A DNA stretch of 64,000 nucleotides from Candidatus Dormiibacterota bacterium. Lineage in GTDB: Bacteria; Chloroflexota; Dormibacteria; Aeolococcales; Aeolococcaceae. The DNA lies in NCBI GenBank assembly GCA_963708605.1, contig CAVPTG010000004.1, positions 250,900-314,899 on the forward strand, in the 5' to 3' direction. The stretch's first letter is position 1. The number at the start of each line of letters is the position of its first letter. Below the pieces are notes generated by a model that saw nothing but the letters and a program-made list of their open reading frames with translations, was not told where the DNA came from and did no database searches. A program made the translations under genes and the position numbers. Of this stretch, positions 36,478-53,162 are shown piece by piece.

Positions 36478-36541
36478 CCGTCGAGTCTATCCTCTGGGGC
36501 TGCTGACGATCGAGATTCGAAGCGAGGAGATCGCGCCACTG

Positions 36542-37329: not shown

Positions 37330-37354
37330 GTGGAGAAAAGTGGTGAGTAGTGGG
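37330..37354 (+). promoter_or_regulatory. MraZ-binding direct repeats
   Basis: GTGGA-N5-GTGGT-N5-GTGGG, three GTGG boxes with 10-nt period just downstream of the promoter. This matches the known MraZ operator architecture. Confidence 0.8.
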
Positions 37355-37399
37355 GATACCGACGTGACGACGGAGAGGCTCGAGCAGGTCCGGGTCGAG

Positions 37400-37870
37400 A
37401 TGCGTGCTCCGGTGACGTTCTTCGGAACGTACCGCCACCATATCGACGAGAAGGGTCGCGTGGCGATCCCGGCTCAGCTCCGCCGCTTCCTGCCCGAGGG
37501 CAGCGTCGTCGCCCCCGGCCCCGAGACCCGCCTGATGATCTGGCCCCCGGAAGAATGGGCGGCGAAGCGAGACCTCTTCCTGCGTACAGCCGAAACGCCG
37601 GCCCAGGAGCGGCGCTTCATGCGCCTGCTCACCGGGAACAGCTCGCTGTTCGAAGTCGACGCTCAGGGACGGCTCCTGCTGTCGGCGCAGCAGCGCACGT
37701 TCGCCCAGATCGTCGACCAGGTCGTCTTCATCGGCATCGGCACCGGTGTCGAGATCGTCGCCGACGAGCTCTGGCAGTCCGACCAGGCGGAGCTCAGCCC
37801 CGCCGAGTTCACCCAGGTCTGGGACCTGGTCCACCAGCGCGGCACGTCCGCTTCCCCGTCCCCGGCGTGA
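37400..37870 (+). CDS. mraZ: Division/cell-wall cluster repressor MraZ
   Basis: FFGTYRHHIDEKGRVAIP and EVDAQGRLLL duplicated AbrB-like motifs; start uncertain. Confidence 0.92.
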   Translation: MRAPVTFFGTYRHHIDEKGRVAIPAQLRRFLPEGSVVAPGPETRLMIWPPEEWAAKRDLFLRTAETPAQERRFMRLLTGNSSLFEVDAQGRLLLSAQQRTFAQIVDQVVFIGIGTGVEIVADELWQSDQAELSPAEFTQVWDLVHQRGTSASPSPA

Positions 37871-37897: not shown

Positions 37898-38914
37898 ATG
37901 ACCATCCCCCTGTCGTTCGTGGCCGGCATGGGGACCCTCGACGGTGCCACGCCCGGCGCCCCGTCGCCTGACGGCGCGGGCCACCGGCCGGTCCTTCTCA
38001 CACCCCTCATAGAGAGCCTGCAGCCCCGGCCCGGGCAGATCGCCGTCGACGCCACATTCGGCGCCGGCGGGGTCACGGCCGCGCTCCTCGAGCGCGTCTC
38101 CCCGGGCGGCCGGGTGATCGCGATCGATCGCGATCAAAGCGCTGTCGACGCGGGTCGCATCCGATTCGGCGCAGACAGCGCGGTGAAGATAGCCCAGGGT
38201 GACTTCGCCGACCTCGAGGCCATCGTTCACGCCGCCGGCGTGACCGCGGCGGACGTCGTCGTCTTCGACCTCGGCATCTCATCGGTCCAGCTGGACGACC
38301 CGGCACGCGGCTTCAGCTTCCGCTTCGACGGACCGCTCGACATGCGCATGGACCCGACAACGGGAACGACCGCCGCGCATCTCGTCGATTCGCTGACAGC
38401 GGACGAGCTGACGTCGTTGATCCGTGACTACGGCGACGAGCGCTTCGCGCGGTCGATCGCGAGCCGGATCGTCAGAGCACGAGAGCGGGCGCCGATCACC
38501 ACCACCACGCAGCTTCGAGAGCTCGTGGAGCAGGTGGTGCCCCGGCGGTTCTGGCCAAAGCGGATCCACCCGGCGACACGCACCTTCCAGGCGCTTCGCA
38601 TCGCGGTGAATCACGAGCTGGAAAGCCTCGAACGAGGTCTGCAGGCAGCAATCAGCATCCTCCGGCCCGGTGGGCGTCTTGGGGTCATCTCCTTTCACTC
38701 TCTCGAGGACACCCTTGTCAAGAACGCACTCCACGTCGCAGCTCAGAATTGTGTCTGTCCGCCCCAACAGCCCCACTGCACCTGCGTCCACCGGGCCACA
38801 CTCTTTCTCCTCACCCGCAAGGTGATCCGGCCGGACTCGGCCGAGCTGGCCACGAATCCGAGATCTCGCTCGGCGCGGCTGCGGGTTGCGGAGAAGCTCG
38901 CCACCGAGGGGTGA
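37898..38914 (+). CDS. rsmH: 16S rRNA m4C1402 methyltransferase RsmH
   Basis: HRPVLL, DATFGAGG, DLGISSVQLD..RGFSF..DGPLDMRM, HPATRTFQALRIAVN, ISFHSLED, NPRSRSARLR. Confidence 0.95.
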   Translation: MTIPLSFVAGMGTLDGATPGAPSPDGAGHRPVLLTPLIESLQPRPGQIAVDATFGAGGVTAALLERVSPGGRVIAIDRDQSAVDAGRIRFGADSAVKIAQGDFADLEAIVHAAGVTAADVVVFDLGISSVQLDDPARGFSFRFDGPLDMRMDPTTGTTAAHLVDSLTADELTSLIRDYGDERFARSIASRIVRARERAPITTTTQLRELVEQVVPRRFWPKRIHPATRTFQALRIAVNHELESLERGLQAAISILRPGGRLGVISFHSLEDTLVKNALHVAAQNCVCPPQQPHCTCVHRATLFLLTRKVIRPDSAELATNPRSRSARLRVAEKLATEG

Positions 38915-39067: not shown

Positions 39068-39563
39068 TTGCTTCATCTGCGTTTCGCACCTGGCGTCGAC
39101 CGCGGGTCGACACCGACGGCAGGCAGCGTCGACGACGTCCCATTCGAACCACTGGTTCGGCGTCTGCGCATCCGCCGCGGCGGACCCCGGACACCGCTGC
39201 CGCTGCTGCCGGTGATCGCGGTCGCCGCGGGCATCGGTATCGCATACGTCAACCAGACCGCGCACGTCACCACAGACACGTACCAGGCGACGCGTCTCGC
39301 CGCGCAGCAACAGCAGCTCGTCGCACAGGACTCGCAGCTCAACGCTGAGCTTTCGCGAACTCGAGGCGTCTGAGCGGATCATCGCCGCCGCGCAGCACAT
39401 GGGGATGCGCCCCGCGACGAGATGGGCGCAGGTCGTGGCTGCGCCGCACGGCGTGATCACGTCACCCCCGGAGCAGCTCACCGGGAGCGTCACCAGGAGC
39501 GCGTTGCAGCAGCTGGTCGGAGCGCTCGACGGCGCCTTCGCCGGGAGCGGCACGGGTCGATGA
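39068..39563 (+). CDS. ftsL: FtsL-like bitopic coiled-coil protein (one apparent +1 frameshift at about 39359)
   Basis: Position between rsmH and ftsI, a single TM (LLPVIAVAAGIGIAYV), a heptad region, and LEASERIIAAAQHMGMRP after removing one base of GAACTC (39357-39362). The stop overlaps the ftsI ATG. Confidence 0.7.
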
Positions 39564-41332
39564 ACCCGCGCCGCCGCTCACCGGAGTCGGCGCGCTCAGC
39601 GCACGCGCGTGCCATCGCCGACGCACCGGATCTGCGCCGGCGGGGACTCTGGCTCGTGCTCGCATTCCTGGCGATGAGCACCGCCGTCTTCGGCCGGCTC
39701 GTGCAGATCCAGATCATCCAGGGCAAATCGCTCGCCGCAGCCGCCGCCGAATCGCACACCTCGTCGGTCACACTGCACGCCACCCGGGGTGTGATCCTCG
39801 ATCGGAACGGACGCGTCCTGGTGAGCAACGTCCAGGTGTTCGACGTGTTCGTCGATCCGGCCCTGGTGGCAGCGGCCGACCGGAGCCAGGTCGCGGGCAT
39901 GCTGGCGCCCATCCTGCAGATCAGCTCGGCTCAGGTACTCCGCGCGCTCAACCAGCCGAATCAGTTCGATTACCTCGCCAAGGGCGTCTCGCAGGACGTG
40001 AACGACAAGCTCCAGGCGCTCCGGCTCAGCGGCATCGGCACCGTACCCTCCGAGGAGACCATCTACGAGCCCTCACCGGTGCCCGGCCTCTCCTTCGCGG
40101 CGAACCTCCTCGGATTCGTCAACGGGAGCGGCGCCGGTCAGTACGGTCTCGAGGGCTACTACAACTCGATCCTTGCAGGGATCAACGGCCGCGAGTCGAC
40201 GTTGACCGATGTCAACGGCAACGCCATCGTCCTCGGCCAGCAGCAGAAGGTTGCTGCCGAAAATGGCGATAACCTGGAGCTGGGCCTCGACTCGCAGATC
40301 CAGTACTGGGCGGAGCTGGCACTCGCCAACGGCGTGAACAGCTCGAAGTCGTCGTCGGGGACGCTGATGATCATGGACACCAAGACGGGCGCGATCGACG
40401 CCTGGGCGCAGTACCCGTCGTACAACGCCAACAGCTACGCAACGGCGCCCTACGCCGGCTTCCGGGACCTCGCGGTGACGCAGCCCTACGAACCAGGATC
40501 GGTCATGAAGGTGATCACCTTTGCCGGCGGCCTCAACCACAACGCCTTCACGCCGGCGACGGTCATCGATGAGAAGCAGCAGCGCATCGACGGGTTTCTC
40601 ATCCACGACTGGGACCGGCGTTCCCACGGCAACGTCACCATGCAATGGGTGCTCGACGACTCGCTCAACAACGGCGCCATCGACGCCATGAAGATGGAGG
40701 GCGAGAACGCTTACTACAACAACCTGCTCGCCTTCGGGATCGGCGCACCGACCGGTATCGACCTGGCGTGGGAGGCCAACGTCCCGCTGCTCCCGCAAGC
40801 GTCGTGGAACCCCCTCAGGTACGCGGAAGCCACCTTCGGGCAGGGCCTCGTGACCACGCCGGTGGAGATGCTCGCCGCGGTGAACGCGGTCGCCAACGGC
40901 GGCATCTGGGTGCAGCCGCATGTCGTCAACGCGATCATCAACCCCAACACCGGCACCACCACGCCGTTCGTCCCGGTGACGCGGCGCGTCATCTCGACCA
41001 CCGCTGCGAATACCCTCGCGCACATGATGGTGGGTGTGGTGAACGATCCGGGCTCCGAGGGAAAGCGGGCCAAGATCCCCGGCTACAGCATGGAGATCGC
41101 CGGCAAGACCGGAACCGCGCAGGTGGCGCTCCCCAACGGTGGCGGCTACGGCCCCAACGTGGTCGCGTCATTCGTCGGGTTCATGCCCGCCACCAACCCG
41201 CGGTTCACGATGATGGTGATCCTCAACAACCCGCAGGTGAGCGCGGGCAACCGTTTCGGCTCGATCCTCGCCGCGCCGATCTGGAAGCAGATGGCCGAGA
41301 TGATGATCGACGACTGGCGGATCGAGCCGTGA
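39560..41332 (+). CDS. ftsI: Class B penicillin-binding protein (FtsI/PBP2B)
   Basis: N-terminal TM, RGVILDRNG, GQYGLEGYYN, EPGSVMK (SxxK), SLN (SxN), GKTGTAQ. Confidence 0.9.
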   Translation: MNPRRRSPESARSAHARAIADAPDLRRRGLWLVLAFLAMSTAVFGRLVQIQIIQGKSLAAAAAESHTSSVTLHATRGVILDRNGRVLVSNVQVFDVFVDPALVAAADRSQVAGMLAPILQISSAQVLRALNQPNQFDYLAKGVSQDVNDKLQALRLSGIGTVPSEETIYEPSPVPGLSFAANLLGFVNGSGAGQYGLEGYYNSILAGINGRESTLTDVNGNAIVLGQQQKVAAENGDNLELGLDSQIQYWAELALANGVNSSKSSSGTLMIMDTKTGAIDAWAQYPSYNANSYATAPYAGFRDLAVTQPYEPGSVMKVITFAGGLNHNAFTPATVIDEKQQRIDGFLIHDWDRRSHGNVTMQWVLDDSLNNGAIDAMKMEGENAYYNNLLAFGIGAPTGIDLAWEANVPLLPQASWNPLRYAEATFGQGLVTTPVEMLAAVNAVANGGIWVQPHVVNAIINPNTGTTTPFVPVTRRVISTTAANTLAHMMVGVVNDPGSEGKRAKIPGYSMEIAGKTGTAQVALPNGGGYGPNVVASFVGFMPATNPRFTMMVILNNPQVSAGNRFGSILAAPIWKQMAEMMIDDWRIEP

Positions 41333-42288
41333 AGGAGACCATCATCGTGGGGGTGCTCGCGTTCGTCGCCGGCGTTGTGCTCTACCCGGTGTTCATCGGC
41401 CTCCTGGTGCGATTCGGCGCACGCCAGCATGTCGCCTCGTACAGCCCGGCGAGCCATCGCGCCAAGGAGGGCACCCCGACGCTCGGGGGCGTGCTGTTCT
41501 GCCTGGTGGTCCTCATCGCCTGGCTCGCGGTCGATCGCTCGCGCCAGGGATTCGTCGTGATCTTCGCCTTGCTCGCCGGTGCGATCGCCGGTGGTCTCGA
41601 CGACATCGTCAACATCAATGACGCCTCCAGGCTCGGGCTCTCCGTCTATCAGAAGCTCGGGCTCCAGGGCATCGCCGGTGTGCTCGTCGGGGTCGGGCTG
41701 ACCATCGCCGGGTTCACGAACCAGTTCTTTCCCGGGCTCGGCGCGCCCAACCTCGGCTGGGGTCTTGCGGTCGTCGCGGCCATTGCGGTCGTCGCCACCA
41801 GCAACGCGGTCAACCTGACCGATGGCGTCGACGGGCTCGCAGCGTCGTGCACGTCGCTCGTGCTCATCGGCCTCGCCATCATCGGGGTGACGCGCGGCGA
41901 CCTGTCGGTCGCGGTCATCGCCGCGGCGCTCGCAGGTGCCCTCGCGGCCTTCCTGATCTTCAACTGGTTCCCGGCGCGCGTCTTCATGGGCGACGCCGGC
42001 TCGCTGGCGCTCGGCTGCGTCATCGTCGCCCTCACCGCCGAGTTGCACCTCATCTGGCTGCTGCCGGTCCTCGGCATCGTATTCGTGGTCGAGGCGGCCA
42101 GCGTGGTGGTCAACGTCACCGCGATCCGCAGGTTCGGCACTCGCGTGCTGCGCGCGAGCCCGATCCACCATCACTTCGAGGAGCTCGGGCTCCGCGAGCG
42201 CCGGCTCGTCGCGGCGTTCGCGGCCGCAGCCGCGGCCGGCACCGCGATCACCGTGCTCTTCGCCCACGTTGCCGGCCCGGTCTCGTGA
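41329..42288 (+). CDS. mraY: Phospho-N-acetylmuramoyl-pentapeptide transferase
   Basis: KEGTPTLGG, GGLDD, SNAVNLTDGVDGL, NWFPARVFMGDAGS, ASPIHHHFE. Confidence 0.95.
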   Translation: MKETIIVGVLAFVAGVVLYPVFIGLLVRFGARQHVASYSPASHRAKEGTPTLGGVLFCLVVLIAWLAVDRSRQGFVVIFALLAGAIAGGLDDIVNINDASRLGLSVYQKLGLQGIAGVLVGVGLTIAGFTNQFFPGLGAPNLGWGLAVVAAIAVVATSNAVNLTDGVDGLAASCTSLVLIGLAIIGVTRGDLSVAVIAAALAGALAAFLIFNWFPARVFMGDAGSLALGCVIVALTAELHLIWLLPVLGIVFVVEAASVVVNVTAIRRFGTRVLRASPIHHHFEELGLRERRLVAAFAAAAAAGTAITVLFAHVAGPVS

Positions 42289-43649
42289 ACGACAGGGCGG
42301 TGGTGGTGATCGGCGCCGGGCGCAGCGGCCTCGCCTGCGCGCGGACGCTCGCCCGAGAGGGTCATCGAGTCGTGCTCGTCGATCGCTCGGACACACTGGC
42401 GATCCGCGAGCGGACTGCGCTCCTGCCGGAGACCATCGAGGTGCGTCTCGGTGGCTATCCCGACGACGTGGCAGCGGACGCGCTCATGGTCTGCCCGAGC
42501 CCTGGAGTGCCGTGGAACGCGCCCGAGCTGCAGATCGCGCGTGACCATGGGGTGCCGGTGCGAAGCGAGATGGATCTGGTCTTCGAGCGGTGCCGGGCTC
42601 GCATCTGCGGGATCACCGGGACGAACGGGAAGACCACCACGACCGCGCTCGTCGCCGCGATCCTCGAACGAGCCGGGGAGCGGGTGCATCTCGGCGGGAA
42701 CATCGGGGTCACCATGCTCGACCGCCTCGACCTGGTGAGCGATACCGATTGGGTCGTGCTCGAGCTGTCGTCGTTCCAGATCGAGTCGGTGCGCGAGCCG
42801 CGCTGCGCCATCGCATGCGTCCTCAACGTCACCCCGGATCATCTCGATCGCCACGGCGACTTCGCGACGTACACCGAGACCAAACGACGCCTGGTGCGGT
42901 TCGCGCTTGACGACGCCGTGCTCGGCTCCGATGACCCGGTCACGCGCGAGATGGCGTCGGTGGCCACGTCGCGGGTGCGCTACTTCGGTCTGAACCCGGG
43001 CATCGCCGACGGCGCCACGCTCTCCGGCGATCAGGTGGTCAGCGTCGACGCCGGCACGGTGACCGCGGTGCTGCCGGTGCGTGACATCCCGCTCTTCGGG
43101 GTGCACAACCTGCAGAACGTGCTCGCGGCCGTCGCCGTCGCCCGCGCGGCCGGGGTCGCCCCATCCCCGATCGCCGGCGCCGTGCGCGACTTCCACGCGG
43201 TGCCGCACCGTCTCGAGACGGTGCGCGACCGCGACGGCGTGCTCTGGGTGAATGACAGCAAGGCGACCAACGTCGAGTCGGCCATCGCTGCGTTGCGCGC
43301 CTTCCCGGACCGGACGATCGTGTGGATCGGTGGCGGCAAGGGCGCGGGCACCTCCATCGAGGCGCTCGCCGACGAGGTGACGGCCCGGGCGCGCCATGCC
43401 GTCCTCAACGGAGCCAGCGCGGGGGAGCTCGACGACGCGCTCGCCCGCCGCGGCTTTGCCACTCGCACGGTGGTCACGTCGCTCGACGACGCGGTGGGCG
43501 CCGCTGCGGAACTCGCCCGGCCAGGCGACGTCGTCCTGCTCGCCCCCGGGTACAAGAGCTTCGACCAGTTCAGCGATTTCGAGGACCGCGGCCGCGCCTT
43601 CGGCGAGGCCGTCCATCACCTCGCGGTACGCTCGGCGGGAAAGGGCTGA
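42285..43649 (+). CDS. murD: UDP-MurNAc-L-Ala:D-Glu ligase
   Basis: GAGRSG, SPGVP, ITGTNGKTTT, GGNIG, ELSSFQ, PDHLDRH, NDSKATN, LLAPG..SFDQFSDFEDRG. Confidence 0.93.
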   Translation: MNDRAVVVIGAGRSGLACARTLAREGHRVVLVDRSDTLAIRERTALLPETIEVRLGGYPDDVAADALMVCPSPGVPWNAPELQIARDHGVPVRSEMDLVFERCRARICGITGTNGKTTTTALVAAILERAGERVHLGGNIGVTMLDRLDLVSDTDWVVLELSSFQIESVREPRCAIACVLNVTPDHLDRHGDFATYTETKRRLVRFALDDAVLGSDDPVTREMASVATSRVRYFGLNPGIADGATLSGDQVVSVDAGTVTAVLPVRDIPLFGVHNLQNVLAAVAVARAAGVAPSPIAGAVRDFHAVPHRLETVRDRDGVLWVNDSKATNVESAIAALRAFPDRTIVWIGGGKGAGTSIEALADEVTARARHAVLNGASAGELDDALARRGFATRTVVTSLDDAVGAAAELARPGDVVLLAPGYKSFDQFSDFEDRGRAFGEAVHHLAVRSAGKG

Positions 43650-44944
43650 TGGCTGCTCGCGCGGGCAAGCTCACCGAAGGCCTCGCCGGGAAGTGGCGCT
43701 GGCGTGGCGGCGCTCGCGTGGCCGGTGCCTTCGCGTCAGCGGATCGCGCGGCCGCGGCTGCAGGGGTCGACGGCTGGCTGATGATCATCGTCGTCGGCCT
43801 GGTCGGCTTCGGCCTGGTGATGGTTTACAGCGCCTCCGAGGCGCTCGGCTTCCTCTGGTACAACGACCCCAACTACTTCTTCGCCCACCAGCTGATCGGC
43901 GCGGTCCTGGGGGGCGCCGGTCTCGTGATCGCCGCTCGATTCGATTACCACAACCTCTCCAGGCTGGCCCGGCCCGCGATGTTCGTGATGCTCGTGCTGC
44001 TCGTGGTGGTGCTGATCCCCCACGTCGGATCGCGGCACTTCGGGGCGCAACGCTGGTTCCAGGTGGGTCCGCTCTCGGTGCAGCCGTCGGCGATCGCGGT
44101 CGGCGTGGCGATCGTGTTCTTCTCGCGCTGGCTGACCGATCGCGAAGGGACGGTCCGTACGCTTCGCGGCGTTCGCGACTACATCATCGTGCTGGGGGCG
44201 CTCCTCGGCCTGGTGCTCATGGAGCGCGACTTCGGCAGTTCGATCGTCATCGCCGCCACGGCGCTGATCCTGCTCGCCCTGGCCGGGGCGCGGAAGCGCC
44301 ACCTGCTGCTGATCATCGTCGGCTTCGGAGCCTCCGGTGTGGCGTTGGTCGGCCTGGTCGCGTACCGCGCCGACCGCCTCGCCCACTTCCTCAACCCATG
44401 CGCCGCCGCGCTCGGCTCCGGATTCCAGAACTGCCAGGCCCTCTACGCGTTCGGCTCCGGTGGCATCTTCGGCGTCGGCCTCGGCAACTCGGTGCAGAAG
44501 TACGAATGGCTGCCCGAGGCGCATACCGACTTCATCTTCGCGATCATCGGTGAGGAGATGGGCCTGATCGGAACTGTCGCGGTGCTCGGGGCGTTCCTCT
44601 TCCTGGCGTGGCGCGGCGTGCGCGCGTCGCTTCGGGCGCCCGACCGATTCGGCGCCCTGCTCGCGGGAGGCATCACCTCGTGGATCTGCATGCAGGCGTT
44701 CATCAACGTGATGGCGGTGACCGGGGTCATCCCCACCACGGGCATCCCGCTGCCCTTCATCAGCTACGGTGGGACCTCGCTGGCGACCACCCTCGTGGGC
44801 ATGGGCATCCTGCTCAACATCTCCGCCCAGGGTCGACGGCAAGGGACGACGAATCGTGCGCACGTTGATCGCTGGGGGGGGAACTGGGGGTCACTTGACG
44901 CCGGCACTGGCGGTCGCGCTCGCGCTTCGAAGCGATCGACCTGA
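43649..44944 (+). CDS. ftsW: SEDS peptidoglycan glycosyltransferase FtsW
   Basis: GLVMVYSAS, GAQRWF, QPS, ERDFG, LPEAHTDFIF..IGEE, TGIPLPFISYGG. The C-terminal tail overlaps murG by 89 nt. Confidence 0.92.
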   Translation: MAARAGKLTEGLAGKWRWRGGARVAGAFASADRAAAAAGVDGWLMIIVVGLVGFGLVMVYSASEALGFLWYNDPNYFFAHQLIGAVLGGAGLVIAARFDYHNLSRLARPAMFVMLVLLVVVLIPHVGSRHFGAQRWFQVGPLSVQPSAIAVGVAIVFFSRWLTDREGTVRTLRGVRDYIIVLGALLGLVLMERDFGSSIVIAATALILLALAGARKRHLLLIIVGFGASGVALVGLVAYRADRLAHFLNPCAAALGSGFQNCQALYAFGSGGIFGVGLGNSVQKYEWLPEAHTDFIFAIIGEEMGLIGTVAVLGAFLFLAWRGVRASLRAPDRFGALLAGGITSWICMQAFINVMAVTGVIPTTGIPLPFISYGGTSLATTLVGMGILLNISAQGRRQGTTNRAHVDRWGGNWGSLDAGTGGRARASKRST

Positions 44945-45959
44945 CGACGAGGTGGTCGTCGTCGGCCGCCGGGACGGCGTCGCCGAGCGGCTCGTGGAGG
45001 CGGCTGGGATCCACCTCGAGACACTCGACATCAGCGGCGTCGACATCGGCAGCGCCGGGGGTGTCGCGCGCGCCACGACCCAGGTGACCCGGGCGACCAT
45101 CGCCGCCCGGGGTCTGCTTCGGAGGATGCGGCCGGACGTCGTGGTGGGTGCCGGCGGCTACGTCTCGGTCCCGGTCGTGGTCGCGGCCCTCGCACAGCGC
45201 ATCCCGGTGGTGCTGCTCGAGCAGAACGCCGTCCCGGGGCGGGCCACCCGGATGCTCGCTCGCCGGGCGCGGATCGTCGCCGCGTCGTTTGCCGAGACCG
45301 CGAGGCATCTTCCCCACGCCCGGGTGGTGCACACCGGCAACCCCATCCGTGCCGAGATCCGTGCCGTGACCAGCCGTCCGGCAGGCGACCGTCTCCGCTC
45401 CGTCCTGGTCACCGGCGGATCCCAGGGAGCGAGGCGGCTGAATCGGGCCATCGCCGGTTGCATGGTCGAGCTGCTCAGCAAGGATCCCGAGCTGCGCATC
45501 GTTCACCAGTCCGGCCTGCTGGACTACGAGGCGGTCGAACGCACCGCGGCGGCGCTGCCGCCGCCCCTTGCGTCGCGATATACGGTCTCAGCCTTCTTCG
45601 ACGACATGGCGATGCGGATCGGTCAGAGCGACCTCGTCGTGATGCGGGCGGGCGGATCATCGCTCGCCGAGTGCTCGGCGCTCGGCCGTCCCATGATCGT
45701 CGTCCCGTATCCGCACGCCGGCGGCCATCAGCGTCACAACGCCGCGCCCTATGCCGCGGCCGGGGCGGCGCGGCTCATCGACGATGCCGACTGCACCCCG
45801 GAGCGCATCGGCAGGGAGATCTCGGCACTGGTCGCCGACCCCGCTCGCTGGCAGGCCATGTCGGCCGCGAGCGCGGCGCTCGGCCTCCCCGATGCCACCG
45901 ATGCGGTGGTCCGTCTCATCGTCGAGGCAGCGGGGCCGCCCCGGAGCAAAGCTGCATGA
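44856..45959 (+). CDS. murG: Lipid II GlcNAc transferase MurG
   Basis: GGGTGGH, GGYVS, EQN, TGNPIR, GGSQGA, RAGGS, HQRHNA. Confidence 0.95.
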   Translation: MRTLIAGGGTGGHLTPALAVALALRSDRPDDEVVVVGRRDGVAERLVEAAGIHLETLDISGVDIGSAGGVARATTQVTRATIAARGLLRRMRPDVVVGAGGYVSVPVVVAALAQRIPVVLLEQNAVPGRATRMLARRARIVAASFAETARHLPHARVVHTGNPIRAEIRAVTSRPAGDRLRSVLVTGGSQGARRLNRAIAGCMVELLSKDPELRIVHQSGLLDYEAVERTAAALPPPLASRYTVSAFFDDMAMRIGQSDLVVMRAGGSSLAECSALGRPMIVVPYPHAGGHQRHNAAPYAAAGAARLIDDADCTPERIGREISALVADPARWQAMSAASAALGLPDATDAVVRLIVEAAGPPRSKAA

Positions 45960-47359
45960 CCATGCATGTGCACGTGCTCGGCATCTGCGGCTATGCGACA
46001 TTCGGGGCGGCACACCTCGCGCTCGAGCGCGGGGACCGGGTCACCGGGTCTGACGATCACGCCTATCCACCGATGAGCGAGGCGGTGACAGCGGCGGGCA
46101 TCGAGTGGGAGAACAACAGCGACCCTGCCAACCTCGACCGCTGGGGGGTGCCCGATCTCGTGGTGGTCGGCAACCAGACGCGCCCCGCCAACCTGGAGCT
46201 CGAGGCCGTGCGCCGGCGCGGCATCCCATGCGTCAGCGAGATCGAGTTCTACGTCTCGCTCGCAGGTGACCGTCTGCGCCTCACGGTGTGCGGCACCCAC
46301 GGCAAGACCACGACCTCGGCGCTCCTGGTTCACATCCTCGAGCGCGCCGGTATGGACCCCGGGTTCCGCCTCGGCTCCACGTCGCTGGACCTCGGCGGGA
46401 CCTCGAGGCTGGGCACCGGGCCGTTCGTCTTCGAGGGCGACGAATACACCTCGGCGCCGTGGGACGCGCGCCCCAAGTTTCTCCACACTCGACCGCACGC
46501 GGCGTGCGTCACCCGCCTCGAGCTCGATCACCCAGACGTCTATTCGAGCCTCGAGGCGTATCGCGAGCCGTTCGTCGAGCTGGCTGCGACCATGCCGGCC
46601 GACGGCGTTCTCGCCCTCTGCGCCGACGACCCCGAGTGCCTGGCGCTGCGCGACGCAGCCACGAGTGTTGTCGTCACCTATGGCACGAAGTCGGGGAGCG
46701 ACTGGTGGATCCGTGGCGCGCACGAGCAGGAGGGCATGCAGCGGTTCCAGGTGGAGCGGCGGGGTGAGGGCCCGCTCGATGTGGTGCTCACGTTTCCCGG
46801 GCTCCACAACGCGCAGAACGCCTGCGCGGCGCTCATCCTCGCCTCTGCGGCGGGCGTCGACCCGGCGGTCTCGGTAGCGGCATGCGCGGATTTCCTCGGA
46901 CCGGCGCGTCGTTTCCAGATCCTCGGCGAGTTTGGCGGGGTCGCCGTCGTCGATGACTACGCGCACCATCCCACCGAGGTCGGCGCCGCGATCGACGCCG
47001 CGCGCCAGCGCTATGGGGGACGCCGCCTGATCGCGATTCACACGCCGCACACCTACTCTCGCGTGAGCCGGCTGCTCGAGGACTACCGTCGGAGCTTTAC
47101 CGGCGCAGATGTGGTGATCATCGGCCCGATCGAGGAGGCGCGCGAGCGCGGGATGCCCAAGACCGTCTCCAGCCGGGATGTCGCCGACCGCGCCGGAGCC
47201 AAGTCCGTGCACGTGGTGGCGTCGAGCGATGAGGCGATCGAGCTGGTGACGCGAATCGCCAGGCCGGGCGATGTCCTTCTGGTGCTCTCCCTCGGTGGAT
47301 TCGACAGACTGTCGCCGCGCCTGCGCGATGCCCTGGAGGCGCAGGGTGCCCGCCGGTGA
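45956..47359 (+). CDS. mpl: Mur ligase at the murC position with Mpl-type signatures (murein tripeptide ligase-like)
   Basis: HVLGICG, VTGSD..YPPMS, PDLVVVGN, GTHGKTTT, EGDEYTSAPWDARPKFLH.RP, LELDH, DDYAHHPT. These match E. coli Mpl better than MurC; functional assignment is uncertain. Confidence 0.7.
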   Translation: MTMHVHVLGICGYATFGAAHLALERGDRVTGSDDHAYPPMSEAVTAAGIEWENNSDPANLDRWGVPDLVVVGNQTRPANLELEAVRRRGIPCVSEIEFYVSLAGDRLRLTVCGTHGKTTTSALLVHILERAGMDPGFRLGSTSLDLGGTSRLGTGPFVFEGDEYTSAPWDARPKFLHTRPHAACVTRLELDHPDVYSSLEAYREPFVELAATMPADGVLALCADDPECLALRDAATSVVVTYGTKSGSDWWIRGAHEQEGMQRFQVERRGEGPLDVVLTFPGLHNAQNACAALILASAAGVDPAVSVAACADFLGPARRFQILGEFGGVAVVDDYAHHPTEVGAAIDAARQRYGGRRLIAIHTPHTYSRVSRLLEDYRRSFTGADVVIIGPIEEARERGMPKTVSSRDVADRAGAKSVHVVASSDEAIELVTRIARPGDVLLVLSLGGFDRLSPRLRDALEAQGARR

Positions 47360-48266
47360 CTGGCTGGACACGTTTCCCGGGGTGCTCATGGACGAGCCGC
47401 TTGCCCGTCACAGCCAGTTCGGAGTCGGTGGCCCGGCGCGATGGTTCATCACCACGCGAGAGACCGGCGTGCTCGCCGAGCTGCTGCGGCGCTGCGACGA
47501 CTCGGGTGTGCCGGTGACCATGCTCGGAGCCGGCAGCAACACGCTGATCAGCGACGAGGGGATCGGCGGGCTGGTGATTCGCCACAACGATCGCCGCCTT
47601 CGCGTGGTCGACGAGCAGACCGTCGAGCTCGGTGCGGGCTGCATGATGCCGCGTGTGGCGCTGGACTGCGCGTCGCGCGGCCTCGCGGGAGTTGAGTTCG
47701 GCATCGGTGTTCCGGGGACACTGGGCGCGAGCGTGTACGGCAATGCGGGAGCATTCGGGACCGACATGGCCGAGGTCCTTGTCGACTGCACGTCGCTCGA
47801 CCCGCGTGGAGCGCCGGTGACGCTCACCGCCGCCGAGTGCGATTTCGGCTACCGGCGCTCCCGTTTCAAGGAGGACCTGCGCGGCAGCGTGGTCGTCAGC
47901 GCACGGCTGCGCGTTCATGCCGACGACCCGGGGCGGGTTCGCGAGCGCACCGACGCGATTCAGGCGGAACGCAAGGCGTCGCAACCGTATGGGATACGCA
48001 GCCTCGGCAGTGTCTTCAAGAATCCGCCGGATGACAAGGCCGGGCGCCTGATCGAGGCGGCCGGGTTGAAGGGACGGCGCTCCGGTGGCGCGCAGATCTC
48101 GCCCAAGCACGCGAACTTCATCGTCAACGTCGATCACGCGACCGCGGCGGACGTGCTGACCTTGGTGCGCGTCGCCCACGACAGCGTGAAGGAGCGGTTC
48201 GGCGTCGAGCTGGAGCGGGAGATCATCGTGCTCGGCGTCGATGCATCCGGTGAACGGTATGACTGA
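47346..48266 (+). CDS. murB: UDP-N-acetylenolpyruvoylglucosamine reductase
   Basis: FGVGGPA, GAGSN, GVPGTLG..GNAGAFG, FGYRRS, GSVFKNP, ISPKHANFIVN, LEREI. Confidence 0.95.
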   Translation: MPAGDWLDTFPGVLMDEPLARHSQFGVGGPARWFITTRETGVLAELLRRCDDSGVPVTMLGAGSNTLISDEGIGGLVIRHNDRRLRVVDEQTVELGAGCMMPRVALDCASRGLAGVEFGIGVPGTLGASVYGNAGAFGTDMAEVLVDCTSLDPRGAPVTLTAAECDFGYRRSRFKEDLRGSVVVSARLRVHADDPGRVRERTDAIQAERKASQPYGIRSLGSVFKNPPDDKAGRLIEAAGLKGRRSGGAQISPKHANFIVNVDHATAADVLTLVRVAHDSVKERFGVELEREIIVLGVDASGERYD

Positions 48267-49452
48267 TGCGCTGCGGGTCGGGGTCTTCTTCGGCAGCCGA
48301 TCGGTCGAGCACGAGGTGTCGGTGATCACCGCGCAGCAGGCGATGGCCGCGCTGCCCGCGGATCGTTTCGTCCCGGTGCCGGTGTACATCGCCAAGTCCG
48401 GCGCCTGGTACACAGGCGGCCAGCTCCTCCAACTCGACCGCTACAGGGACATCGATCGACTGATCGCCGCGTCCACGCGGGTCACCATGCGCCCCGACCC
48501 TGGCAGCCGCGGCGAGCTCATCGAGGTCGACGGGCGTCGCGGGCTGCTCGGCGGATCGGCGCGCGCGGCGGATCGATTCGACGTCGCGATGCCTCTCGTG
48601 CACGGGTCCAACGGGGAGGACGGAACGCTCCAGGGACTCTTCGAGCTGGCAGGGCTGCCGTACTGCGGATGCGACGTCGCGTCCGCCGCTGTGAGCATGG
48701 ACAAGCGGCTCTCTCGCACGACCCTGCGCGGGGCGGGGCTTCCCGTGCTCGACGACGTGATGGTGTCGCGCGCTCGGTGGCAGCTCGAGCCGGATGCGGT
48801 GTGCGCGGACCTCGCGCGCCGGCCGGGTTTCCCGATGTACGTCAAGCCACGCCGGCTCGGGTCGAGCATCGGGGTGGCGCGAGTCGACAGCGAGGAGACC
48901 TTGAGGGCCGGCCTCGACGTCGCGTTCGGCTACGACACGTCGATCCTCGCCGAGGCCGCCCAGGACGGCGGCATCGAGATCAACTGCTCGGTGCTCGGAT
49001 GGGGAGATGACGTGCGGGCATCGGTGTGCGAGCAGCCGGTGAGCACCGGCACGCTCAGCTATGCGGACAAATATCTCAGTGGTGGCAAGGGAAAGGGGGG
49101 CGCCAAAGCTCCCGCGGCCGGGATGAAGAGCTCGCAGCGAATCATCCCGGCACCCATCTCGGACGCGCTGACGAAGCGCATCCAGGAGGCGGCGTTGACG
49201 TCCTTTCGCGCCATCGGTGCCGCCGGTGTGGCCCGGGTCGACTTCCTGGTTGCGCCCGACAGCGAGTCGTTCGTCGTCAACGAGCTGAACACGTTGCCCG
49301 GGTCGCTGTCGTTCTACCTCTGGGAAGCATCCGGCATGCACTTTGACGCCCTGCTCACGCGACTCATCGATATGGGGCTTGCCCGGCACCGCGAGCAGCA
49401 GGCAACCACGTCGTCGATCGACACGTGGCTGCTCACGGGACGGCCGGGCTGA
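48259..49452 (+). CDS. ddl: D-alanine--D-alanine ligase (long form)
   Basis: FGSRSVEHEVS, HGSNGEDG..QG, MDK, VKP..LGSSIG, YADKY, RVDF, NELNTLPG. Confidence 0.92.
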   Translation: MTDALRVGVFFGSRSVEHEVSVITAQQAMAALPADRFVPVPVYIAKSGAWYTGGQLLQLDRYRDIDRLIAASTRVTMRPDPGSRGELIEVDGRRGLLGGSARAADRFDVAMPLVHGSNGEDGTLQGLFELAGLPYCGCDVASAAVSMDKRLSRTTLRGAGLPVLDDVMVSRARWQLEPDAVCADLARRPGFPMYVKPRRLGSSIGVARVDSEETLRAGLDVAFGYDTSILAEAAQDGGIEINCSVLGWGDDVRASVCEQPVSTGTLSYADKYLSGGKGKGGAKAPAAGMKSSQRIIPAPISDALTKRIQEAALTSFRAIGAAGVARVDFLVAPDSESFVVNELNTLPGSLSFYLWEASGMHFDALLTRLIDMGLARHREQQATTSSIDTWLLTGRPG

Positions 49453-49475
49453 ACGGCGAGAAAGGCGGCACGACC

Positions 49476-50261
49476 GTGGTCGGAGCAACGGGAGAGGTTC
49501 CCCGCGCTGCACTGGAGGACCGTGGCAGCGGCCGCCCTCTGCTGCTCCTGCACGGCTGGGGAGTCTCGTCCGAGCTGTTCGCGCCGATCCTCGACGCCCT
49601 GCAGGCGGGACGGCGTCTGATCGTTCCCGACCTGCCCGGTTTCGGCGCCACACCGGAGCCGGGCTCGGCGTGGTCGGTGCACGACTACGCGGCCTGGTGC
49701 ATCGCACTGCTCGACCGGCTCGGGATCTCCACCGTTGACCTCATCGGGCACTCCAACGGCGGACGCGTCGGCATCGTCATGGCCGCAACCAATCCAGGAC
49801 GCATCAGCCGGATGGTGCTCGTGGGCAGCGCCGGAATCCGCCAGCGGCAGACGTGGCGCAGCGCCGCGCGGGTCCGCTCGTACAAGCTGCTTCGAGCGGT
49901 TGAGCGGTCGGGGGCTGTGCCGCCGGCACTGCGGCGGGCGGCCGCCCGGCGGGCCGATCAGCGCGGGTCCGCCGACTACCGTGCGGTGTCCGGAGTCATG
50001 CGCGGCACGCTGGTCCGGTTGGTCAACGAGGATCTTCGAAGCCTGCTGCCGCATCTGCGCCTGCCGGTGCTGCTCATCTGGGGGGAACATGACACCGAGA
50101 CGCCCCTCGACGACGGGCGGCTGATGGAGCAACTGATCCCGGACGCGGGGCTGGTCGTCTTCGAGAGCGCCGGCCATTACGCCTATCTCGAGCAACCAGC
50201 GCGTTTCTGCAGGATCGTCGAGGTGTTTCTCCGCGACGAGCCGGGCGAGGTCTCGGCATGA
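49476..50261 (+). CDS. Alpha/beta hydrolase (serine esterase) between ddl and murF
   Basis: LHGWG, DLPGFG, GHSNGG (GxSxG), WGEHDTETP, AGHYAYLEQP. Start uncertain (49425 or 49476). Confidence 0.85.
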   Translation: MVGATGEVPRAALEDRGSGRPLLLLHGWGVSSELFAPILDALQAGRRLIVPDLPGFGATPEPGSAWSVHDYAAWCIALLDRLGISTVDLIGHSNGGRVGIVMAATNPGRISRMVLVGSAGIRQRQTWRSAARVRSYKLLRAVERSGAVPPALRRAAARRADQRGSADYRAVSGVMRGTLVRLVNEDLRSLLPHLRLPVLLIWGEHDTETPLDDGRLMEQLIPDAGLVVFESAGHYAYLEQPARFCRIVEVFLRDEPGEVSA

Positions 50262-51922
50262 GCCCGCTCGTCGGTCCGCTGGTCGCGCTCGCGGCCGTGG
50301 TCTGGGTGATCCTCGTCTTCCGGATCGTGCTGGTCGCCGCGCGGATGTTCCAGATCGAGGAGTACGAGTCGGTCCGCTTCCTCCGCTGGGGGCTGACTCG
50401 CGAGTGGCTCGCCCATCGCGCGGTGTGGCTCGGCCTGCTGCTGGGAGCGGTGGCGCTCAGCGTCGCCGCGGTGCTCCCCGCGGCGCGCCCGATCGGCATC
50501 GCCATCGCGTGGCTGGTGTCGGCGGCCGCGGCGCAGTTCACGTGGCGCTGGACATCACCGAAGCGCCCGCTGGTGATGACCGCGAGGATGCGCAGGCTGC
50601 TCATCGCGGGTGGCTTCCTCGCGGTGGTGCTGGCCGCAGGGCTGGCGCTCGGCATCGTCACCCTGCACCCGGTCGTGTCGACAATCCTCGTGCTCATCGC
50701 CGCGGGCCTGGTCACCAGCCTGAGCGAGATCCTCCTGGTTGCTGCCAATGTCGTCACCAAGCCTGCGGAGTTGCGGATCCGGCATCACTATCTCGCGCTC
50801 GCCGCTGCGCGCATCGCGATGGTCGATCCGCTGGTGGTGGCGGTGGTGGGCAGCTTCGGCAAGACCAGCACCAAGCACATCCTCGCCCAGCTGCTCGAGC
50901 CGCACGTCAACACGCTGCCGACCCGGAAGAGCTTCAACACCCTGATGGGCGTGACCCGCGTGATCAACGAGGACTTGGCTCCCGAGCACCGCGTCTTCAT
51001 CGTCGAGATGGATGCATACGCGCCCGGGGAGATCGCGGCGATCAGCGACCTCGTGCATCCGAAGGTGGCGATCATCACCGCGATCGGCCCCCAGCACATG
51101 GAGCGTTTCGGCACCATCGACCGCATCGCCGGCGCGCTATACGAGGTCGCAGGCGCGCTGCCCGCCGACGGCACGCTCATCCTCTACACAGGCGACGAGT
51201 CCGGCGCAGCCCTGGCGCGGCAGGCGCGCAACGAGCACCGGCACCTGATCCGCTACGCGCTGGCCGAGGACGGAGAAACCGTCGACGCCGAGGTCATCGC
51301 ATCGTCCATCCGCGTCGACGCCCACGGTTCGACCTTTCGCTGGCGCTGGGATGTGCTGGGCCTCGACCGGCAGGTGTCCGTCCCATTGCTCGGGCGCCAC
51401 CAGGTGGCCAACGTCACCGCGGCACTCGCGGCGGTGCACACCCTTGGCTACTCCGTCGACGATGCGATCACGACGGCGGCGGGGCTGGAGCAGGTCGAGC
51501 ATCGCCTGCAGCTGATGGAGAGTGCCGGGCCGCTGACGGTGATCGACGACTCATACAACGCCAACCCGGTCGGCGTGCACAACGGCCTCGAGGTGCTCGC
51601 CGCGATGCCCGGAACCCGCAAGTTCCTGATCACGCCGGGGCTCGTCGAGCTCGGCAGCGTCGAGGATGAGGAGAACCGTCGTTACGGTGCCCACGCCGCG
51701 ATCGTGTGCGACCACGTGATCGTGATGTCGGCGAAGACGAGCACGGCATTGTGTGCCGGGCTCCGCGGTGGCGGCATGAGCGATGACCGCATCCACGTCG
51801 TCGAGACGCTCGATGACGCGACGCGGCTCCTGCAGGCCCTGTCGCGTCCCGGCGACGTGGTGCTGTTCGCCAACGACCTCCCGGATACGTATCTCCCGGT
51901 CGCGCACGCCGCTCGCACCTAG
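50258..51922 (+). CDS. murF: MurF-type ligase with an N-terminal multi-TM anchor
   Basis: About 4 N-terminal hydrophobic segments, GSFGKTSTK, KSFNT, VEM, IGPQHMERF, DDSYNANP, TPGLVELG, VLFANDLPD. Confidence 0.8.
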   Translation: MSPLVGPLVALAAVVWVILVFRIVLVAARMFQIEEYESVRFLRWGLTREWLAHRAVWLGLLLGAVALSVAAVLPAARPIGIAIAWLVSAAAAQFTWRWTSPKRPLVMTARMRRLLIAGGFLAVVLAAGLALGIVTLHPVVSTILVLIAAGLVTSLSEILLVAANVVTKPAELRIRHHYLALAAARIAMVDPLVVAVVGSFGKTSTKHILAQLLEPHVNTLPTRKSFNTLMGVTRVINEDLAPEHRVFIVEMDAYAPGEIAAISDLVHPKVAIITAIGPQHMERFGTIDRIAGALYEVAGALPADGTLILYTGDESGAALARQARNEHRHLIRYALAEDGETVDAEVIASSIRVDAHGSTFRWRWDVLGLDRQVSVPLLGRHQVANVTAALAAVHTLGYSVDDAITTAAGLEQVEHRLQLMESAGPLTVIDDSYNANPVGVHNGLEVLAAMPGTRKFLITPGLVELGSVEDEENRRYGAHAAIVCDHVIVMSAKTSTALCAGLRGGGMSDDRIHVVETLDDATRLLQALSRPGDVVLFANDLPDTYLPVAHAART

Positions 51923-52040: not shown

Positions 52041-53162
52041 GTGAGCACCGAGCTGCTTGACGAGCGCGCGCGCCACGTTGCCCTCGTGCGCGCCCAGGCG
52101 GCCCTCATCGCCGATTCGTCGCGATCGGTTCGCCGTCTGGTCCTCAGCCCGGGGGCGAAGCTCACCTCGTCGCCTCGCAAGCGCCGCCATGGGAGGCACG
52201 GGACCCCGCCGCCACCGCCCGCAGCCAGGCGGCACACGTCCTGGAGGCGGCGCGCCATCGCGGCCGCCGCGCTCACCCTGCAGGTTGGCCTCCTCGTGGT
52301 GGCGCTGACGCTTCCGGGGTTCCAGGTGCACAAGGTGACCGTCGTGGGCACTCACCTGCTCACCACCGGCGCCGTCGTCGCCGCGGCGGAGGTGCCCGAA
52401 CAGAGCATCTGGACCATCAACGGCGCGGCGATCCAGGGCCGGGTGCAGGCGCTCCCCTGGGTGGCGAGCGCGGTGGTGACCACCGAGCTGCCGGCGACGG
52501 TGGAGATCTCGGTGGTGGAACGGGCGCCGATGCTCCGGATCCGTCGCGACGGCACCGACACGCTCGTCGCCTCGGACGGGGCGACCCTGCCCGGGGTCGA
52601 CGCGACGCCCGCTGCGCGGAGCGGTATCCCGGTACTGATCGACGATCGCGCCGGATCGCCCCAGGGCATCAACCCGGTGCTGGTCCAGCTGCTCAGCTCG
52701 ATCGCGCAGCGATTCCACGCCGTGTTCGGGTGCTCGGTCGCCGCCTACCTGTGGGGCGCGGACGATGTGGTCAGCCTCTGGACGACCACCGGCTGGCGCG
52801 CCGTTCTCGGTCACCTCGACACCCAGGATGCGATCGCTGCGCTCCCGGCACAGATCGAGACCCTCGCCGCCCTCAAGGGGCGGCTCAACTTCGCGAAACC
52901 GGCCTTCGGCTACGTCGATCTCGAGGCCGCGCCGTTCCCGGTGAGCGGCGGGCATCCCGGGCTCCCCGCGGAGGTGAGCGCGGCACTCCTGCCCACCGCC
53001 CCGGCCGTCCAGCCGCCGCAGGCGGCGTCCTCGGTCCCTCCACCCACGGCGGCGCCGACCCCCCGTCCGACGCCGACGCCCACGCCGGCGACCAGCGCCA
53101 GCCCGACCTCGGGCATCGTTCTCAACACCGCTCCCGCATCCACGCCGACCGCGTCCCCCTGA
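52041..53162 (+). CDS. ftsQ: Cell division protein FtsQ/DivIB with Pro/Thr-rich C-terminal tail
   Basis: Basic cytoplasmic N-terminus, TM, POTRA (VTVVGTHLL...LPWVASAVV...LPATVEISVVER), YVDL near the end, PTPRPTPTPTP tail. Confidence 0.8.
   Translation: MSTELLDERARHVALVRAQAALIADSSRSVRRLVLSPGAKLTSSPRKRRHGRHGTPPPPPAARRHTSWRRRAIAAAALTLQVGLLVVALTLPGFQVHKVTVVGTHLLTTGAVVAAAEVPEQSIWTINGAAIQGRVQALPWVASAVVTTELPATVEISVVERAPMLRIRRDGTDTLVASDGATLPGVDATPAARSGIPVLIDDRAGSPQGINPVLVQLLSSIAQRFHAVFGCSVAAYLWGADDVVSLWTTTGWRAVLGHLDTQDAIAALPAQIETLAALKGRLNFAKPAFGYVDLEAAPFPVSGGHPGLPAEVSAALLPTAPAVQPPQAASSVPPPTAAPTPRPTPTPTPATSASPTSGIVLNTAPASTPTASP

Follow-up and report, generated by a model that had tools for sequence, protein, structure and literature searches.

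A putative MurC subfamily, sister to Mpl, in the dcw cluster of Dormibacteria

Introduction

In the dcw cluster of a soil bacterium of Candidatus Dormiibacterota, the gene located between murG and murB encodes a Mur ligase carrying motifs of the recycling ligase Mpl, which raises the question of whether its product performs the reaction of MurC, that of Mpl, or both. The whole stretch of DNA analyzed (hereafter, the window) comprised 64,000 nucleotides (contig CAVPTG010000004.1, positions 250,900–314,899, assembly GCA_963708605.1). According to the original prediction, made from the sequence alone, either an Mpl-clade enzyme had taken over the role of MurC, or stem-peptide recycling with bypass of MurC, MurD, and MurE had been built into the division operon, possibly with an unusual stem peptide. 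The substrate of MurD is UDP-MurNAc-L-Ala, the product of MurC.

Results

Gene Neighborhood and Motifs

The genes neighboring the target were named using NCBIfam models (Table 1). The start codon of the target gene is overlapped by the TGA of murG (ATGA at 45956–45959), and a second ATG at 45962 is a possible true start; murD is located three genes upstream. As follows from the NCBIfam-named gene order, ftsI directly abuts mraY with neither murE nor murF between them, which agrees with the original prediction. The absence of murE from the window was likewise confirmed, as TIGR01085 matches on contig C4 were limited to murD, the target gene, and the murF-like gene. A murF-type gene is, however, present at 50258–51922; it is divergent, lies 3′ of ddl, is followed by an ftsQ-like gene, and is the sole MurF candidate in the genome. 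An ordinary murE was found on another contig (C12:182857–184266; TIGR01085 score of 471 bits vs. a cut-off of 257). The Mur ligase pathway is complete in this genome, with murD, murE, and a murF-like gene all present.

Table 1. Coordinates of the target gene, its motifs, and its neighbors in the window (HYB, the clade named in this work)
Feature	Position	Strand	Comment
ftsI/SpoVD-like PBP, then mraY	39422–41332, ~41374–42288	+	murE/murF absent between them
murD	42291–43649	+	TIGR01087, 371 bits vs. cut-off of 212
ftsW	ends at 44944		NCBIfam
murG	44769–45959	+	upstream of the HYB gene, translationally coupled; TIGR01133, 264 bits, over cut-off
HYB-type MurC gene, 467 aa	45956–47359	+	the only MurC/Mpl-type ligase of the genome
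UDP-binding glycine loop GICGYATFG, residues 9–17	45980–46006	+	Mpl-like GICG, MurC has GIGGxGM; Das 2011 (PMC3060825)
YPPMS, residues 37–41	46064–46078	+	common to Mpl; not in canonical MurC
ATP P-loop GTHGKTT, residues 113–119	46292–46312	+	invariant in alignment A2
EGDEY (Mg/ATP Glu and Mpl-type Tyr164), then 7-residue insertion loop TSAPWDARPKF, residues 165–175	46433–46480	+	loop not in canonical MurC
DDYAHHP, residues 333–339	46952–46972	+	Tyr335/His337 = HiMurC Tyr346/His348; first position Phe in Mpl
TPHTYSR, residues 363–369	47042–47062	+	His365/Thr366/Arg369 = HiMurC His376/Arg377/Arg380; MurC type, not Mpl EPRSNT
murB	47382–48266	+	downstream of the HYB gene; start GTG 47382 or ATG 47388
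ddl (403 aa), alpha/beta hydrolase, membrane-anchored murF-like ligase (554 aa)	48241–51922	+

The lack of murE from the dcw cluster is not particular to the target locus: all Dormibacteria loci examined have it in common, whether they carry HYB or canonical MurC. Peptidase_S66 (LdcA) and AmpG were searched for in the target genome, and neither was found. Since this genome is only 80% complete, the absence of a second murC, ldcA, and ampG from it carries little weight, which for murC is offset by a single-copy pattern holding across 145 genomes. With murD adjacent, murE on contig C12, and LdcA and AmpG not found, the idea of recycling built into the operon, with bypass of MurC, MurD, and MurE or an unusual stem peptide, found no support.

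All of the Mpl-like motifs quoted in the original prediction (HVLGICG, YPPMS, PDLVVVGN, EGDEYTSAPWDARPKFLHTRP, and LELDH) were found, exactly as given, in the 467-aa translation of 45956–47359 (+), and the E. coli Mpl and MurC strings cited with them agree with K-12 genes b4233 and b0091, respectively. The insertion loop after DEY has been described as Mpl-specific (PMC3060825). The target keeps the ATP/Mg residues of Mur ligases that vary little or not at all in alignment A2 (GTHGKTT, E160/E163, H192, N285/N288, R318/R319, and D333/D334), and has a C-domain motif of its own, ARE (residues 395–397), where MurC has AGE. The AlphaFold model of the protein (pLDDT of 91.5) matched ligand-bound HiMurC with a TM of 0.89.

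Phylogenetic Position and Similarity Scores

Judged by its sequence, the target is a member of a distinct clade, named HYB here, with Mpl-like N-terminal and middle domains and a MurC-like C-domain. HYB and true Mpl formed one clade (support 100/100) from which all sampled canonical MurC sequences were excluded, and the true Mpl clade (99/97) excluded the target. The Dormibacteria HYB clade was sister (84/95) to a clade containing a Saccharibacteria sequence. The origin of the target as a fast-evolving vertical descendant of canonical Dormibacteria MurC was rejected by the AU test (ΔlnL of 159.6, p = 2.4 × 10−8) and is also contradicted by the insertion and motifs that HYB shares with Mpl. A domain chimera uniting the N-terminal and middle domains of Mpl with the C-domain of MurC was rejected as well, since HYB formed a separate block between Mpl and MurC in the tree constructed from the C-domain only (starred branches, 95 and 96).

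BLASTP comparison of the target gave 34% identity with EcMpl (219 bits, 4% gaps) and 30% identity with EcMurC (166 bits, 8% gaps). The score against the MurC model TIGR01082 was 306 bits, which is 29 under the curated equivalog cut-off of 335.1, and that against the Mpl model TIGR01081 was 259 bits, which is 130 under the corresponding cut-off of 388.7. In all HYB proteins tested, the MurC model (306–405 bits) outscored the Mpl model (241–288 bits); the MurC cut-off was passed by three of the six, and clade-mates of the target scored 327–405 bits. In true Mpl controls, the order was reversed (413–470 bits with the Mpl model and 308–328 bits with the MurC model). Because the TIGR01082 scores of true Mpl from the co-occurrence control (292–334 bits) overlap the 306 bits of the target, profile scores were rejected as a classifier. 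A PDB sequence search, in which MurC (196–216 bits) and Mpl (208 bits) were equal, was also rejected for this use, as was a fold search, the Foldseek ranks being driven mostly by the open or closed pose of the domains; with targets restricted to the N-terminal and middle domains, TM was 0.90 for 6cau and 0.89 for 3eag.

Since the target lies outside the Mpl clade, falls 130 bits short of the Mpl cut-off, and has a MurC-type amino-acid site, HYB is more aptly termed a MurC subfamily with Mpl as its sister. The expectation of an Mpl-clade enzyme in the role of MurC comes close to the data: the target shares a 100/100 branch with Mpl and occupies the slot held by canonical MurC in sister families, but it is outside the true Mpl clade and its site is of the MurC type. 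An ordinary murE elsewhere in the genome, together with branching within MurC, had been named as speaking against the original prediction; the former was found, whereas the target does not branch within canonical MurC. Full-text searches returned no description of the HYB clade in the literature that they covered, and the subfamily is apparently undescribed so far.

Amino-Acid Site of the C-Domain

The C-domain site was compared at the L-Ala positions of HiMurC in 23 HYB, 41 MurC, and 21 Mpl rows of the alignment. The HYB rows had Tyr (22), His (23), His (23), Thr (23), and Arg (23), and the MurC rows had Tyr (40), His (40), His (37), Thr (23) or Arg (8), and Arg (41). In the Mpl rows, the same positions were occupied by Phe (19), His (21), Arg (19), and Ser or Thr, with a one-residue insertion. 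The target keeps the L-Ala-binding residues Y335, H337, H365, and R369 (HiMurC Tyr346, His348, His376, and Arg380, respectively). It has T366 where HiMurC has Arg377; Thr was also the most common state in canonical MurC (23 of 41 rows).

Distribution and Synteny of HYB Genes

Among the 151 Dormibacteria genomes surveyed, 145 had a match. HYB was found in 89 of these (43–100% identity; families f1, f40, and f2) and canonical MurC in 56 (32–39% identity; families f3 and f4). The MurC/Mpl-type gene was single-copy in all 145 genomes, the two types were never found together, and at all loci examined one or the other was flanked by murG and murB. Comparison of HYB-type with canonical-type loci revealed an identity of 39–47% for the flanking murG and murB and only 32–35% for the ligase. 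In Dormibacteria, a single operon slot is filled interchangeably by canonical MurC or HYB, and in-place replacement therefore occurred at least once.

Five more genomes had HYB as their only gene of the MurC type, namely, four small ones (0.6–1.2 Mb) and a 4.3-Mb Dormibacterota MAG, and the order murG-HYB-murB was found in Saccharibacteria, Patescibacteria, and Dormibacterota loci. The metagenomic protein P0129 is a fusion of HYB with MurB. Sorting of 38 sampled Patescibacteria genes by group HMMs assigned approximately six to HYB and 28 to canonical MurC, by which HYB was rejected as the general MurC of Patescibacteria; three genes had the loop and were otherwise canonical MurC. In the co-occurrence control, 9 of the 10 genomes with true Mpl also had a canonical MurC as a separate gene.

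Discussion

The target is probably a MurC of the HYB subfamily that performs ordinary L-Ala ligation. The ordinary MurC function is the most likely one because the alanine-binding site of MurC is kept despite the Mpl-like first two domains, and we infer that L-Ala is the substrate. The points counted against this assignment are the missed MurC cut-off, the closer BLASTP match to EcMpl, the common branch with Mpl, Thr366, and the ARE motif. As in every Mur ligase, ATP would convert the carboxylate of UDP-MurNAc to an acyl-phosphate, with the P-loop (residues 113–119), Glu160/Glu163, His192, Asn285/Asn288, Arg318/Arg319, and Asp333/Asp334 serving this step. L-Ala, held in the MurC-type C-domain site (Tyr335, His337, His365, and Arg369), would then be added, and the product would be the substrate of the adjacent MurD, with MurE (encoded on the other contig) and the MurF-like ligase acting next. 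The GICG loop, YPP, VVGN, Tyr164, and loop 165–175 would reflect ancestry shared with Mpl in the UDP-MurNAc-binding half; these Mpl-like features should not be read as evidence for tripeptide use.

A true Mpl, that is, a ligase that recycles tripeptide and bypasses MurC, MurD, and MurE, would account for the Mpl-like motifs, the BLASTP preference for EcMpl, and the Mpl label given by JGI to most homologs. It is nevertheless highly improbable, given a score of 259 bits against an Mpl cut-off of 389, a position outside the 99/97 Mpl clade, and C-domain motifs that are not of the Mpl type. Moreover, intact murD and murE would lack a substrate without a MurC, and 89 HYB genomes have no other MurC, whereas true Mpl co-occurs with MurC. 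Position 1 of the stem peptide is Gly or L-Ser in some bacteria (PMC8844914), and a MurC-type ligase adding one of these residues instead of L-Ala would yield an unusual stem peptide. The subfamily's own ARE motif and Thr366 could be cited for such a specificity; it appears improbable, however, since the residues contacting L-Ala in HiMurC have been retained, ordinary MurC most often has Thr where HiMurC has Arg377, and nothing points specifically to Gly or Ser.

The target could also stand functionally between MurC and Mpl, with dual specificity for de novo addition of L-Ala and for ligation of preformed tri-, tetra-, or pentapeptides to UDP-MurNAc. In agreement with this, it shares a branch with Mpl and has features of the N-terminal and middle domains that Das et al. 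(PMC3060825) tied to the different positioning of UDP-MurNAc in Mpl. Nor is specificity strict in this family: Psychrobacter Mpl accepts L-Ala (0.7 per min vs. 260 per min for tripeptide), and murC(ts) is rescued by over-expressed E. coli mpl. However, the C-domain site is of the MurC type, lacking the EPRSNT and Phe of Mpl, LdcA and AmpG as suppliers of peptides were not found in the genome, and the operon bears no sign of salvage, which makes dual specificity unlikely, though less so than the two preceding readings. We consider equally doubtful the broader proposal that HYB proteins are living MurC-to-Mpl intermediates of dual specificity. On that view, wall peptides would be recycled or scavenged by way of the core division operon in Dormibacteria and in some Patescibacteria of ultra-small size, no dedicated Mpl being involved.

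The predicted function of HYB as a MurC is an ordinary one. The clade is coherent and well supported, lies between MurC and Mpl, and combines the nucleotide-sugar half of Mpl with the amino-acid site of MurC. It thus provides a concrete starting point for studying how the recycling ligase Mpl arose from MurC, and it separates the Mpl-specific features tied to the peptide substrate (C-domain) from the others (loop, YPP, and GICG). The distribution of the two types (89 vs. 56 genomes) shows that, within a single class, an essential dcw gene has been exchanged in place. It should be noted that the annotation of HYB proteins is conflicting, with Mpl given by JGI and "Mur ligase family protein" or MurC by NCBI; the Mpl label, if followed in pathway reconstruction, would wrongly make Dormibacteria murC-less.

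In comparison with known systems, the target shares with MurC the three Mur-ligase domains, all ATP/Mg residues, the amino-acid site in the C-domain (DDY.HHP and PH.YSR), and the single-copy state in the dcw operon between murG and murB. It differs from MurC in having GICGYAT instead of GIGGxGM, in YPP, VVGN, the Tyr after DE, and the seven-residue insertion after DEY, in ARE and S.GGF instead of AGE and GAGD, and in its place in the tree, on the Mpl branch and apart from the canonical MurC sequences that sister families have. With Mpl, it has in common GICG, YPPMS, VVGN, the GGF-type C-terminal motif, and Tyr164, which corresponds to PaMpl Tyr182; the loop SAPWDARPK is equal in place and length to (S/T)AFFDKRSK of Mpl and matches it at five of nine positions, and GICGYAT is a partial match to the GI(C/G)GTFM mark. 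Unlike Mpl, the target has SEI in place of SGP (PaMpl 90–92) and YAHH, TPHTYS, and SLG in place of FAHH, EPRSNT, and SNG, lacks the one-residue insertion, has no separate MurC beside it, and is located within the dcw operon. The HYB-type ligases of Patescibacteria, e.g., those of Saccharibacteria L047 and Patescibacteria L049, carry MurC annotations and are only 33–38% identical to the target, and several of them pass the MurC cut-off, which the target does not; they carry the same hybrid signature and, like the target, are encoded by the sole MurC-type gene in the order murG-X-murB.

Sequence and predicted structure of the ligase

The target frame (45956–47359) is open, and its product of 467 aa carries three Mur-ligase Pfam domains. 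All motif strings quoted in the original prediction, which assigned the gene to the Mpl type, were present in its translation, and the E. coli strings were verified against K-12 murC (b0091) and mpl (b4233). The identity to E. coli Mpl was 34% (219 bits, 4% gaps) versus 30% to E. coli MurC (166 bits, 8% gaps; BLASTP). Under the NCBIfam models, the target scored below both cut-offs (murC TIGR01082, 306 bits, cut-off 335; mpl TIGR01081, 259 bits, cut-off 389). Proteins of its subfamily (HYB: Mpl-like N-terminal and middle domains, MurC-like C-domain) scored 306–405 bits for murC and 241–288 for mpl, and true Mpl proteins 308–328 and 413–470, respectively. Scores against PDB sequences were tied (MurC entries, 196–216 bits; Psychrobacter Mpl 3HN7, 208 bits). 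The AlphaFold model (30-row alignment input, pLDDT 91.5, pTM 0.92) aligned most closely with the ligand-bound MurC of H. influenzae (TM 0.89, rmsd 2.3–2.5 Å) versus TM 0.72 for Psychrobacter Mpl, and a Neisseria Mpl two-domain fragment and MurC two-domain fragments fitted it equally well. The predicted structure confirms a Mur-ligase fold but does not tell MurC from Mpl.

Motifs and the L-Ala site

According to Das et al. 2011 (PMC3060825), Mpl-specific features are GI(C/G)GTFM, Tyr182, the (S/T)AFFDKRSK loop and SGP, with FAHH, EPRSNT and SNG in the C-domain, and the L-Ala site of H. influenzae MurC comprises Tyr346, His348, His376, Arg377 and Arg380. By spacing, these site residues map to Y352, H354, H382, R383 and R386 in E. 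coli MurC and to Y335, H337, H365, T366 and R369 in the target. The target was compared with 31 relatives of the same GTDB phylum. In this set, members of the Dormibacteria families f1 (that of the studied genome) and f2 had GICG, YPP, VVGN, a 7-residue insertion after DEY, and S.GGF, and all remaining genomes, including those of f3 and f4, which belong to the same class, had the ordinary (canonical) MurC form. DDY(A/G)HHP (DDFAHHP in Mpl) was found in every protein of both groups, and PH.Y/F(S/T)R (EPRSNT in Mpl) in most proteins, including all six HYB rows.

Residues at the L-Ala site (H. influenzae MurC numbering) in the 86-row alignment
Group	Tyr346	His348	His376	Arg377	Arg380
HYB (n = 23)	Y 22	H 23	H 23	T 23	R 23
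Canonical MurC (n = 41)	Y 40	H 40	H 37	T 23 / R 8	R 41
Mpl (n = 21)	F 19	H 21	R 19	S 16 / T 5	R 17, after one-residue insertion

Taken together, the site residues and the motif comparison indicate that the target's putative UDP-MurNAc-binding half bears Mpl marks and its putative amino-acid-binding domain those of MurC. In the MurC of three Patescibacteria loci (L135, L142 and L144), an insertion of 7–8 residues follows DEY, and the marks are otherwise canonical (GIGG or GITG, GAGD, no YPP); therefore, the loop is separable from the other Mpl-like marks. Another Patescibacteria ligase (L152, genome G281) bears the loop, FPP and GICG and has an altered C-domain (DDLGHSP, EPNTGNR) without His at the MurC His376 position.

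Phylogeny

Close relatives of the target were few: in the full-library phmmer search, identity dropped to about 40% beyond Dormibacteria proteins, which were followed by other hybrid, then Mpl-type and then MurC-type proteins. In the main tree (IQ-TREE, LG+C20 PMSF, 86 rows, MurD outgroup), all 23 HYB and all 21 Mpl sequences formed one clade (100/100), with true Mpl, including that of E. coli, as a subclade (99/97). The proposed affinity to Mpl was thus upheld for the whole clade but not for the true Mpl subclade, outside which the target lies; HYB may be a sister clade to Mpl or a grade below it. The Dormibacteria HYB proteins formed a clade (100/99), sister (84/95) to a group containing a Saccharibacteria sequence, and the canonical MurC of f3 and f4 fell among ordinary MurC. 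A single Dormibacteria group of HYB and canonical proteins, named after the tree was built yet corresponding to the a priori expectation under vertical descent, was rejected (AU test, delta lnL 159.6, p = 2.4e-8). The C-domain-only tree gave three blocks, Mpl, HYB and MurC, set apart by branches with starred values of 95 and 96, and the separate HYB block argues against a recent domain chimera. Full-text searches of a literature library found no published account of the HYB clade.

Gene cluster and genome context

Genes of the cluster in the window
Gene	Position	Strand
mraZ	37340–37870	
rsmH	37898–38914	
ftsI/SpoVD-like PBP	39422–41332	
mraY	about 41374–42288	
murD	ends 43649	
ftsW	ends 44944	
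murG	ends 45959	
target ligase	45956–47359	+
murB	ends 48266	
ddl	48241–49452	
alpha/beta hydrolase	49425–50261	
murF-like ligase	50258–51922	
ftsQ-like gene	52041–53162	

The target ATG overlaps the murG stop (ATGA), and about 25 nt lie between its stop and the murB start. Shortly before mraZ, and in the same orientation, comes a PepE-type dipeptidase gene with weak cyanophycinase similarity (36257–37249; NF003642, 243 bits). As had been noticed, ftsI directly adjoins mraY, and murE is missing from the cluster and the window; it is not missing from the genome (a 3.0-Mb MAG, 80% complete), where an ordinary murE lies on contig C12 (G000:C12:182857-184266; L006:1483-3009, minus strand; 471 bits, cut-off 257). 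In every Dormibacteria locus examined, murE was outside the cluster; therefore, its absence is not tied to ligase type. The genome also contains folC, and Candidatus Dormibacterota is the label on the target's close homologues. The MurE of this genome reads DEDPR at residue 420, the position of DNPR in E. coli MurE. The DNPR motif is linked to meso-DAP selection, and MurE of the DDPR type, for example in Thermotoga, adds lysine; hence, the third stem-peptide residue may be other than meso-DAP.

In this genome, G004 and G119, murF is absent between ftsI and mraY, and murB is followed by a long ddl (403 aa), an alpha/beta hydrolase gene and a 554-aa murF-like ligase (48241–51922 in the window) with about four N-terminal hydrophobic segments (TIGR01143, 196 bits, below the cut-off of 289). 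In G083 (f1), G017 (f2) and locus L048, murF occupies its usual slot, and ddl is 27–37% identical to that of the window. The ddl-hydrolase-murF cassette looks like a joint replacement.

Distribution and synteny

Matches were obtained in 145 of 151 sampled Dormibacteria genomes, each with a single MurC-type gene (split into two pieces in three). Identity to the target was bimodal: 43–100% in 89 HYB genomes (f1, f40 and f2) and 32–39% in 56 genomes (f3 and f4), with no co-occurrence of both ligase types (0/145). In the loci examined, both occupied the same slot in the order ftsI-(murF)-mraY-murD-ftsW-murG-[ligase]-murB-ddl-ftsQ; f4 loci (L032, L033 and L037; genomes G041, G053 and G110) had ftsW directly after mraY, murD having moved out of the cluster in this family. 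Between the studied genome and f3/f4, the flanking murG and murB were 39–47% identical and the ligase just 32–35%, versus 45–46% for all three relative to f2.

HYB was also the sole MurC-type gene in four genomes of 0.6–1.2 Mb (one Saccharibacteria and one Patescibacteria MAG, plus two differently labelled CPR-sized MAGs) and in a further 4.3-Mb Dormibacterota MAG; the order murG-HYB-murB recurred in the Saccharibacteria, Patescibacteria and Dormibacterota loci. By profile, 6 of 38 genes in a wider Patescibacteria sample were HYB, 28 canonical, three loop-bearing but otherwise canonical, and one altered in the C-domain. The metagenomic protein P0129 (730 aa) is a fusion in which a HYB-type ligase is followed, on its C-terminal side, by a complete MurB (FAD_binding_4 + MurB_C). 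As a control, a separate canonical MurC (442–547 bits) was found in 9 of 10 genomes bearing true Mpl. The other, G310 (Limisphaera sp., L064), had no such match at E <= 1e-45, which could mean that its MurC is divergent or falls in a gap of the assembly.

Probable function

The target is probably the organism's MurC, of a subfamily sharing its nucleotide-sugar half with Mpl, and L-Ala is its predicted substrate; its product, UDP-MurNAc-L-Ala, would pass to the adjacent MurD. The MAG contained no second MurC/Mpl-type gene. It also had no matches to the Peptidase_S66 (LdcA) and AmpG models, both of which detect E. coli proteins in control searches; at 80% completeness, the lack of such matches serves as supporting evidence. 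A pure Mpl bypass, in which the target would only ligate recycled peptide, is very unlikely. Dual L-Ala/peptide specificity is improbable, though less so than the bypass, and is entertained because specificity in the Mur-ligase family is leaky: Psychrobacter Mpl uses tripeptide at 260 per min versus L-Ala at 0.7 per min, and E. coli mpl, when over-expressed, rescues a murC(ts) mutant.
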